Shown: positions 6,001 to 9,000 of the stretch, in pieces | Layout: each line of letters opens with the position of its first letter | Numbering within the stretch: the first letter of the stretch is position 1 | NCBI GenBank assembly: GCA_965230635.1 | Contig: CBDDLJ010000015.1 | Location: 15,094-79,093, forward strand | Source: Gammaproteobacteria bacterium | Lineage (GTDB): Bacteria > Pseudomonadota > Gammaproteobacteria > UBA1113 | Length of the DNA stretch: 64,000 nucleotides | Direction: 5' to 3' | Position numbers: made by a program

Positions 6001-9000
6001 TATTTGAAAAAATAAAATTTCGAATTGATTATTAAAATAGGAAGAACCAGGAATGAAACGCACACATAAGAAAACACTTAAAATTCACGACACCTTCGCT
6101 AAAATAGAAAAAACCACAAAGAAACAAAGGTTAATTAGAAAAGACATATTAACAAGTAAAAAATTGATTCAAAACTACATGCAACATAATGACATTGACG
6201 GCATTATGTTATCTTGACTTCAAGGAAGAAGGCAACGAAACTAATCAACGAGCTCAGGAAGAGCTTAAACGGATTTTTGTGCTGGGGCAAGCGTCGAATG
6301 GACTGTTTTGTTAAAATTCTTATCGCACTGATGCAAATTCAGACAGTCAATTTAAAGAAGCTAGCTTGTGGAATTTATGGCACAGCCAAGCCTGATTCGA
6401 GCTACCGTCGTCTTCAACGATTTTTTTCAAGTTTTAAACTCAACTATGATGACATTGCAACACTAATTTTCCATCTCTTTCATTTTAATGATGGAAAACA
6501 TTATCTGATCGTGGGCCGTACCAATTGGCAATGGGGAAAAAGAAACATCAACATTCTATTTTTGTGTATTGCCTATAAGAAAATGGCAATACCAATCTTC
6601 TGGCTGATACTTATAGCAGTTTTCAATATTACTAAGCGAGTATAACGCGTGCTCGCGCGGTTTCAAAAGTGAGGTTTACTTACTGTAAATAAGCTTTTGA
6701 AGACCAAAGCAAGCGCGTGTTAGAGGAAGTTTATAATGGCTTAGTAATATTGAAAACTGCTATAACAAAAGGGGAGATTCATCAACTCGGGAACGTGCTG
6801 CGCTTGTGCAGCGTTTTATTAGAGTGTTCGCTAAGGATAATATCGAAGCAATTCTTGGCGATCGTGAATTCATCGGTGAAGATTGGTTTCAATATCTGAA
6901 GGATAGAGGTTTATGCTTTTATTTTAGGGTGAGAAAAGATGCTGACACAACAAACGCCAATGGCAAAAGCATCTCAATTCACTGGCTATTTATGAATTTG
7001 CCATTGAATAGGCCAAAACAAATCAAGAATCCAAGAAAAGTTTATGGTCACTTACTCTATATCACTGGAATGAAGATAGTTGATGATTATTTAATTGTTG
7101 TAACTAACCGCAAACCAGAGGTTGGTGCCGACGATGATGTTATCAAAATATACAGCATTCGTTGGGAAATCGAAACACTTTTTGGCTGCCTGAAGACGAA
7201 GGGTTTGAGTTTTGAAGACACGAGAATCACGACTCGTGAAAGGGTAAAAAAATTAATTGCCGTGTTAGCAATTGCATTTTGTTGGGCTCATCTAACAGGT
7301 GAATGGCGCAATCGATGCGAGAAAGTAATCCCACTAAAGAAACACGGCAGACCGCAGGTTAGCCTGTTTAGATATGGACTTGACTGGATAATGACAGCAC
7401 TCATTCATCGAGGGCAAAAATTGCGCAAATTGGTGCGAATTTTCACTGAATTGATTGCCAATCCCATCAGAAGTTTGGGCCTTGGGCGGGTTCATGAGTG
7501 AGCTTTGTCGCGTACGAAGGAAGATATTGAAAAACCGTCCTAAATAAGGTCTAATCGGCAAATAATGGTTTTACGTCTTTTAACGGGAGGGTAATCCTAT
7601 GAAACTAGCCGACACACTTGAAAAAATTGAAAATAATCTGACCACGACTTGCTGCGACACGCACGGTCACTACGGCGACGAGGAGGCAGCAAAGCTTGCA
7701 CGGGCCTTAAAAAACAATAAGACCCTGACCTCGCTTAGCCTTGCGTTCAATAACATCGGCAACAAGGGGGCAGCAGCGCTTGCTTTCGCCTTACGAACCA
7801 ATAGAACTCTGACCTCACTTAACCTTGGGAACAATTCTATCAGCGACGAGGGGGTAACAGAGCTTGCTTTCGCCTTACAAACCAATAAAACCCTGACCTC
7901 GCTTAACCTTTGTAACAATTCTATCAGCGACGAGGGGGCAAAAGAGCTTGCTTTCGTCTTACAAACCAATAAAACCCTGACCTCGCTTAACCTTTGTAAC
8001 AATTCTATCAGCGACAAGGGGGCAAAATATCTTGCCTGTGCCTTGTCAGAAAATAACACTTTGAACTCAATTAACCTTATGTCCAGTGGTATCGGCTATG
8101 AGGGAGCAAAAAATCTTGCCTGTGCCTTGTCAGAAAATAACACTTTGAACTCAATTGACCTTAGCTTCAATAGTATCGGCGATAAGGGCGCAAACGACCT
8201 TGTCTTTGCCTTAAAAGCCAATAACACCCTGCTCTCTCTTAACCTTCAAAATAACGACGACATCAGCGCTGCAGTCCGTATTAAAATCAACCAACTGCTT
8301 AAAGACCGACAACAAAAAAGCAGGGGACAACAAATCTTATATAGCTCCGTCGATCCTAGTCGCCCTGTTTTAGACAATCTTTGGGTGATTTCGTTAATGC
8401 GAAAACCTGAAGGTGCGCATGCTGAGCATGCATTTTTATCACTTGAAGGAAAGAAGAATAATCGCACTATGATTTGGTTTATAGATTTAGTCGGTAATCC
8501 TATATTGCCCGGGATAGGAAATGGAAAAATAAGAATACATAATTATGCTGGGGATTTGGAGGAAGAGCTATTATTTTGCTGTAACAGACGCATGATGGAT
8601 ATCAGAAAAGGCGATCGTATTATATCGTCCTCTTGGAATATTCCTGTTGATACGGCGAACCGGCTACTTGAATCTGTTGCCCAAGCTCAAGCTAATCCCC
8701 CTAAATTTAATATATTAGGCCAACAGAGTCTCTTTGCCATTGGCACAGGCGCTTCAAGTAGCACGGCTACGGGTCATAATTGTTTTACCTGGGCGAAAGA
8801 GCAACTCCGCAATCTGAATGACCCACATATTCAATTACCCATGGATGATATTCAATCCTGGGTTTTTTCAGCTACGAGCCGCTTATTGGTGGATAATCGG
8901 CAACAAACTACTTTCTGGTATCACCGTCCCGTGGTAATTGCCACTATGATTGGAGCAGCAGCAACCGGTGGAATTGCTGTAGGGAGCTCAGGCATTTTAC

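Follow-up and report, generated by a model that had tools for sequence, protein, structure and literature searches.

Organization of the locus

The locus described here occupies positions 6036 to 7528 of a 64,000-nucleotide stretch of contig CBDDLJ010000015.1 (GenBank assembly GCA_965230635.1, a gammaproteobacterium); this whole stretch, referred to below as the window, was the sequence analysed. Read along the forward strand, the locus comprises the 5′ stump of a gene whose intact paralog lies at 10048-10731, a relic of an IS4-family, ISAba1-like insertion sequence (IS) and, within the transposase gene of the latter, a miniature inverted-repeat transposable element named MITE-2. A preliminary description had read this arrangement as three nested insertions, in which MITE-2 entered an IS4-family transposase gene that had itself truncated the paralog. 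The paralogy, the assignment to the IS4 family and the insertion of the MITE stood up to analysis, whereas the step that joins the IS to the gene fragment is better read as a deletion scar. We therefore regard it as likely that the locus as a whole consists of a paralog stump, a deletion junction, a one-ended ISAba1-like IS4 relic and a TA-duplicating MITE within it. The span originally assigned to the locus was essentially right, except that the IS relic ends at 7519 and not at 7560. The features, in order, are:

6036..6210, plus strand: 5′ stump of the paralog, with the ribosome-binding region and ~53 codons
6211..7519, plus strand: ISAba1-like IS4-family relic, left end truncated, 1,309 bp (1,158 bp without the MITE)
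6235..6237, plus strand: former transposase start codon, now ACG (Thr)
6514..6516, plus strand: first catalytic Asp position of the DDE triad (N2 motif), now GGC (Gly)
6612..6613, no strand: TA target-site duplication, left copy
6614..6762, no strand: MITE-2, a 149-bp non-coding palindromic element
6763..6764, no strand: TA target-site duplication, right copy
7502..7519, plus strand: right terminal inverted repeat of the IS, GCTTTGTCGCGTACGAAG, intact
7520..7528, no strand: GAAGATATT, presumed right copy of the 9-bp IS target site; left partner missing
10048..10731, plus strand: intact paralog, encoding a 227-aa orphan protein without a Pfam family

The stump of a paralogous gene

In a mechanical list of open reading frames (ORFs), the stump appears as 54 codons plus a stop at 6053-6217, of which the TGA (6215-6217) is borrowed from the IS leader. 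Its product aligned in BLASTP with residues 1-60 of the protein encoded by 10048-10731 (65% amino acid identity, E 2e-24), with a single 6-codon gap, and BLASTN gave 77% identity between 6036-6210 and 10031-10223, with the identity collapsing past ~6210. The homology to the start of gene 10048 that had been claimed for this fragment is thus real. Over the 54 shared codons, a noisy estimate puts synonymous divergence (dS) at ~0.40, non-synonymous divergence (dN) at ~0.13 and their ratio dN/dS at ~0.33, which suggests that the duplication is old, that both copies were under purifying selection through most of their later history, and that the truncation is comparatively recent. The 10048 protein was assigned to no Pfam or NCBIfam family, and a search of 5.8 billion proteins found only the protein itself.

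An ISAba1-like member of the IS4 family

The two ORFs on either side of the MITE insertion (6214-6645 and 6806-7501) jointly match Pfam DDE_Tnp_1 (PF01609) with 59 bits against a cut-off of 23, and the transposase scores 242 bits against NCBIfam NF033591 (IS4 family transposase; cut-off 152), in agreement with the family named in the preliminary description. The reconstructed transposase carries the signature Y256-x2-R259-x3-E263-x6-K270, contained in YSIRWEIETLFGCLK, and hence the spacing Y-(2)-R-(3)-E-(6)-K; its second Asp (D159) stands in GDREF, and E263 is present. This YREK signature and the DDE (Asp-Asp-Glu) triad are the criteria given for the IS4 family by De Palmenaer et al. 2008 (PMC2266710). 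Those authors characterize the IS10 subgroup by a size of 1,200-1,350 bp, 5′-CT ends and direct repeats of 9 bp (their Table 1).

A database search with the transposase returned 3,454 relatives, the closest of which (66-71% amino acid identity, 365-370 aa) come from metagenomes; a scan of genome contigs gave relatives at 31-52% identity, mostly ~42% or below, from Chlamydiales, Waddliaceae, Verrucomicrobia and others. The ends were compared using six loci, which represent five distinct related IS sequences at 66-71% amino acid identity. Aligning copies in this way, as had been proposed for this element, defined the terminal repeats: all six loci begin, 110-112 bp before the ATG, with CT(T/C)CGTACACGACAAAAC and end, ~4 bp past the stop, in its exact mirror GTTTTGTCGTGTACGRAG, the repeat being 18 bp long. 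One of them (L041) is flanked by a clean 9-bp target duplication, GAATCGACT. The intact relatives measure 1,245-1,247 bp, against 1,158 bp for the MITE-free relic, and each has a single transposase ORF of 365-370 aa with no programmed frameshift, compared with 371 codons in the MITE-free window copy. By their size, their CTTCG or CTCCG ends and the 9-bp duplication at L041, the relatives fall within the IS10 subgroup; in the window, the right CT end alone is visible. This right repeat directly follows the transposase stop codon (7499-7501) and aligns with the right ends of the six related loci and with that of ISAba1, TTTGTCGTGTACAGAG.

The closest comparison among named elements is with ISAba1 and ISAba33 of Acinetobacter, the transposases of which are 46-48% identical in amino acids over 91% of the length. 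Common to ISAba1 and the window lineage are the motifs N2 (LDRTNW), N3 (DREF) and YREK, together with near-identical terminal repeats (CTCTGTACACGAYAAA in ISAba1, the CT(T/C)-initial repeat given above in the relatives, and CTTCGTACGCGACAAAGC at the right end in the window). An ISAba1 copy (L043) bounded by these ends and by the 9-bp duplication AATAATAAT has the same architecture as the relatives, and ISAba1-type elements and relatives alike have a size of 1.18-1.25 kb, 5′-CT ends and a 9-bp target duplication. Unlike ISAba1, the copy in the window is inactivated and has kept one end only; moreover, the examined ISAba1 copy reads in two frames, whereas the intact relatives of the window IS have one 370-aa ORF. 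Because the amino acid identity is below 50%, we treat the window IS as separate from the named elements, and judging from these comparisons it is an as yet unnamed, ISAba1-like element within the IS4 family, known so far from metagenomes alone.

On one metagenome contig (L039, 382-1655), two related IS copies stand head to tail, exactly 9 bp apart. This arrangement may stem from tandem insertion or from wrap-around in the assembly of an element with many copies.

Lesions in the transposase gene

The transposase bears two point lesions that the preliminary description had not recorded. In 8/8 aligned homologues, a start Met directly precedes (K/R)LI(N/T)EL (the annotated ORF of one, P0003, has a 20-residue upstream extension), and the corresponding codon in the window, at 6235-6237, is ACG. 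The window reads AAGGAAGAAGGCA-ACG-AAA-CTA-ATC (then AAC GAG), against ...GAAGG.A-ATG-AAA-CTA-ATC (then AAT GA) in the relatives. The gene fragment had been said to end exactly where the transposase ORF begins. The ORF at 6214-6645 opens at a TTG, a mechanical start that lacks a ribosome-binding site and overlaps the stop of the stump ORF, and the real start position is 6235.

The other lesion changes the N2 codon at 6514-6516, which specifies Asp in 8/8 homologues and in ISAba1 and is GAT in five relatives (LILDRTNW), to a Gly codon. The homologues thus have the complete DDE triad and the window copy does not, having Gly in first place with D159 and E263 kept; the IS lineage accordingly qualifies, and the window copy is a mutant of it. 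Positions D94, D159 and E263 of the transposase we take to resemble D97, D161 and E292 of IS10. A profile search of the PDB with the transposase gave no match at E ≤1, and the Tn5 residues could not be mapped. Since the ORF is otherwise free of stops and frameshifts, the inactivation is probably not ancient. As it retains one end only, has lost its start codon, and has a damaged active site and an interrupted ORF, the IS is predicted to be unable to move, and the locus appears to be inert debris.

Insertion of MITE-2 into the transposase gene

MITE-2 has perfect terminal inverted repeats of ~25 nt (TAGCAGTTTTCAATATTACTAAG...). Its inverted-repeat arms (6611-6645 and 6731-6765) extend over 35 nt with 94% complementarity, and its DNA folds as a whole-length hairpin (-42.2 kcal/mol, z = -9.9). 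As stated in the preliminary description, it splits the transposase gene, and deleting 6614-6764 in silico rejoins the frame: removal of exactly 151 bp (6614-6764, or equivalently 6612-6762) gives one continuous transposase frame, while removal of 149 or 153 bp leaves ~20 stops and the frame is not restored. Counted from the homologous start position, the restored ORF has 1,116 nt, or 371 codons, with no internal stop or frameshift. Across the join it reads PIFWLILNKRGDSSTRE, against PIFWLVLNKKGNSSTRE in the homologues, and the conserved peptide WL(I/V)LNK(R/K)G is regained. The empty site reconstructed in this way, CTTAAC, is identical to the site in a related IS copy (L002), and BLASTN alignments of the flanking parts with related IS copies meet at IS positions 489/491, on either side of the MITE.

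Because the frame returns only when a net 151 bp (149 + 2) is taken out, the target held a single TA, which was duplicated; both TA copies in the feature list were placed on the evidence of the rejoined frame and the empty site. The reconstruction shows that MITE-2 did insert, at a later stage, into the transposase gene. The element is short and non-coding, has terminal inverted repeats and a target-site duplication, and is present in multiple copies, and so qualifies as a MITE. Its value as an example lies in the clean and internally controlled view of the target duplication, the empty site being reconstructed from a conserved protein.

The boundary between the gene fragment and the IS

Where the relatives have two terminal inverted repeats, the window copy has the right one only. 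No inverted partner of the right repeat was found in the 64 kb with up to 3 mismatches allowed, and searches of the window with the left 115 bp of the relatives, by BLASTN and by an nhmmer profile, yielded its right end only. DNA homology to the five related IS copies begins at IS position ~104-106, corresponding to 6228 in the window, with a weaker resemblance of the leader back to ~6211 (ATCTTGAC..TTCAAGGAAGAAGGCA against ATCTTGCAAATTTCCAAAGGTGAAGGAC in the relative L040). Homology to IS positions 1 to ~84 is absent, and coding sequence of the paralog is found there instead. With the left repeat and the start of the IS replaced by paralog sequence, ~85-90 bp of the IS, including the left repeat, are missing. 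At the opposite end, no second GAAGATATT matching the presumed target site was found near the left side, and the other copies in the window are >18 kb away, as by chance. To the right of the IS end at 7519 there are 79 bp and then an intact gene with leucine-rich repeats of the LRR_6 type (7599-9023). In tblastn, the remainder of the gene to which the stump belonged was found nowhere else in the window, including to the right of the IS.

The missing left repeat and leader, the lack of a target duplication and the lack of a 3′ part of the paralog together indicate that the boundary at ~6210/6211 is no insertion end but a deletion junction inside the IS. Truncation of the paralog by insertion of the IS, as had been claimed, thus finds no support in the left repeat, the 9-bp partner or the 3′ part of the gene, and the paralog need not have been the target of the IS at all. 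Microhomology (ATCTT) at the breakpoint is possible, as judged from diverged proxies only.

Several points weigh against this account. The position of the breakpoint is uncertain by ~10 bp (6210-6220), and the expected left end is derived from relatives with at most 71% amino acid identity in place of a sister copy. A catalytic role is assigned to Asp94 by its motif position and invariance. Instead of a single deletion, the IS may first have inserted into the paralog, with two deletions afterwards. The source, finally, is possibly a draft assembly or metagenome-assembled genome (MAG), and the contig, of 89 kb, presumably one of many. This last point bears on whether the fragment/IS junction could be an assembly chimera, misjoins often being caused by multi-copy IS elements and the flanks of the related IS at L040 and L041 demonstrating that these can differ between assemblies. 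However, the join does not lie at a repeat boundary, the IS leader runs smoothly into the ORF, and the paralog, which is the sole sequence in common, is at 77% identity too divergent for an assembler to confuse; other, independently truncated elements nearby also fit real deletional decay, and we consider a chimera very unlikely.

Direct insertion of the IS into the paralog, which would truncate the gene and make insertions of all three layers, accords with the fact that paralog homology stops within a few bases of the start of IS-derived sequence, and IS insertion into genes is common. It would leave unaccounted for the absence of the left inverted repeat with ~85-90 bp of the IS, of any 9-bp duplication, and of the paralog 3′ part past the intact right end at 7519, given that the LRR gene starts 79 bp further on. 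At best this reading needs two further deletions after the insertion, and it seems improbable to us. Still harder to credit is that the IS is complete and that its lineage has a short or divergent left end within ~6190-6234. The five related IS (six loci) and ISAba1 have perfectly mirrored ends ~110 bp from the ATG, the right end in the window is conserved with the relatives but has no inverted match at ≤3 mismatches, and the DNA preceding 6211 shares 77% identity and the reading frame with gene 10048. We give this possibility almost no weight, and retain a deletion junction inside the IS as the favoured explanation.

Proposed history and its meaning

Under the favoured explanation, an old duplication would have given rise to two 10048-type genes (dS ~0.4), both mostly under purifying selection (ratio ~0.33), and the IS would then have inserted by cut-and-paste downstream of the paralog and upstream of the LRR gene, beside GAAGATATT. 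Three further events, for which no relative order is implied, would complete the locus. MITE-2 entered a TA within the Leu-Asn codons of the transposase, with duplication of the TA, as the restored frame shows. One illegitimate deletion would have joined paralog codon ~54 to IS nucleotide ~85-90, with loss of everything between them: the remaining part of the paralog, the DNA that separated gene and IS, the left copy of the target and the left end of the IS; a single deletion is the most parsimonious reading. Point decay, visible in the codons themselves, changed the start ATG to ACG and the GAT of the first DDE Asp to GGC.

For annotation, the region should be recorded as a gene stump, a one-ended inactivated ISAba1-like IS4 pseudo-element and a TA-duplicating MITE, and two 'transposase' genes plus a small ORF are not warranted. 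Deletion has shaped the region as much as insertion, as is expected for a host-associated bacterium of the Legionellales (see below). Nested and decayed mobile elements and pseudogenes are common in host-restricted bacteria; the window shows the same pattern, with nothing distinctive. The locus is ordinary mobile-DNA wreckage formed by a mechanism that is not unusual, with little consequence beyond annotation, and the IS is an unnamed member, and the MITE a new member, of familiar classes.

The MITE family in the window

MITE-2 belongs to a family with 8 members in the window, where shuffled sequences lead one to expect ≤0.02 matches. The members form two subfamilies:

Subfamily 2: 6612-6764 and 36020-36186 (90% identical), with a solo terminal repeat at 9379-9404
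Subfamily 1: 2281-2444, 17627-17790, 44284-44449 and 60697-60860, with a partial copy at 5201-5338

The core of subfamily 1 is ~75% identical to that of subfamily 2, and the terminal repeats differ between the two while being internally mirrored in each. The 5 complete copies that keep both termini (TATAGC...GCTATA) all start with TA-TAGC and end with GCTA-TA, and are bracketed by TA; in the copy at 36020 the left terminus is mutated.

Insertion into TA with duplication of the TA is the hallmark of the IS630/Tc1-mariner superfamily. Like MITEs derived from that superfamily, the window elements are 149-164 bp long and non-coding, have perfect terminal inverted repeats of 25-30 nt, fold as whole-element hairpins, occur in many copies and, as the empty-site reconstruction indicates, duplicate TA. 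The one longer context found for these repeats is the solo repeat at 9379-9404; the transposase stump beside it is of the rve type (IS481/IS3-like) and not an IS630-type enzyme, and the assignment of the MITEs to IS630 is unproven.

Exact searches of metagenome contigs with the terminal repeats gave 0 matches for each subfamily, and BLASTN of the MITE against plasmids gave no match. Likewise, no autonomous parent element with MITE-2 repeats was found in the window, the metagenome contigs or the plasmids. We advance only tentatively, as a possibility that is rather less than even, that the family is a new, lineage-restricted element that is highly abundant in the genome of an uncultured Aquicella-like member of the Legionellales. 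Were this so, the two types of repeat would point either to two different unseen transposases or to one core switching transposase.

The solo repeat is 26 nt long and identical to 6612-6637, and the sequence beyond it differs from the MITE core. It lies ~120 bp past the stop of an 82-aa C-terminal transposase fragment with rve_3/rve_2 similarity (IS481/IS3-like). The solo repeat could be an end of the parent of the MITE, or merely a broken MITE.

Host and neighbouring sequences

The housekeeping genes in the window (dnaG-rpoD, recG, spoT and typA) are those of a gammaproteobacterium. TypA is 74% identical to proteins from MAGs labelled 'Legionellales bacterium' and from Aquicella lusitana, and ankyrin and LRR proteins encoded in the window fit an intracellular lifestyle. 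Taken together, these protein similarities indicate a host that is a Legionellales/Aquicella-like gammaproteobacterium.

Within ~5 kb around the locus there are several stumps of mobile elements (IS110-, rve- and IS4-type, a group II intron and MITEs) in addition to the gene stump. Those outside the locus itself are:

5201-5338: truncated MITE-1 copy
5656-5919, plus strand: IS110-family C-terminal stump, 87 aa, matching NF033542 positions 271-341 of 343 (E 7.6e-6, below cut-off)
9379-9404: solo MITE-2 terminal repeat
9524-9772, minus strand: rve-type transposase stump, 82 aa, Pfam rve_3/rve_2 C-terminal
9790-9863, minus strand: stump of a group II intron, domain V/VI (RF00029 in Rfam; 36.7 bits, gathering threshold 40; E 1.3e-4)

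The IS110 stump lacks the N-terminal ~270 residues. The intron stump lies directly upstream, on the minus strand, of the rve-type stump, and because the ≤240 bp left before gene 10048 are too short for an intron ORF, the intron match is taken as a truncated element. An Rfam scan of 5000-11000 found nothing within the stump/IS/MITE locus itself. The ORF at 9131-9277 had been considered as an IS3 OrfA stump and was dropped, as Pfam gave no support.

Right after the IS relic, 7599-9023 (plus strand) encodes a protein of 474 aa whose N-terminal half has five LRR_6 (RNI-like) repeats and whose C-terminal half, of ~230 aa, is without a Pfam match; the product is a candidate eukaryote-like effector. 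At 11411-11884 (minus strand) there is a sub-threshold match to the OTT_1508-like deaminase family PF14441 (E 6e-4, 20 bits against 27). Further away, the 636-aa product of 36309-38219 (minus strand) has a weak similarity, far below cut-off, to the Legionella Dot/Icm ankyrin effectors AnkY, AnkF and AnkH, and also a sigma-70-like C-terminal stretch.

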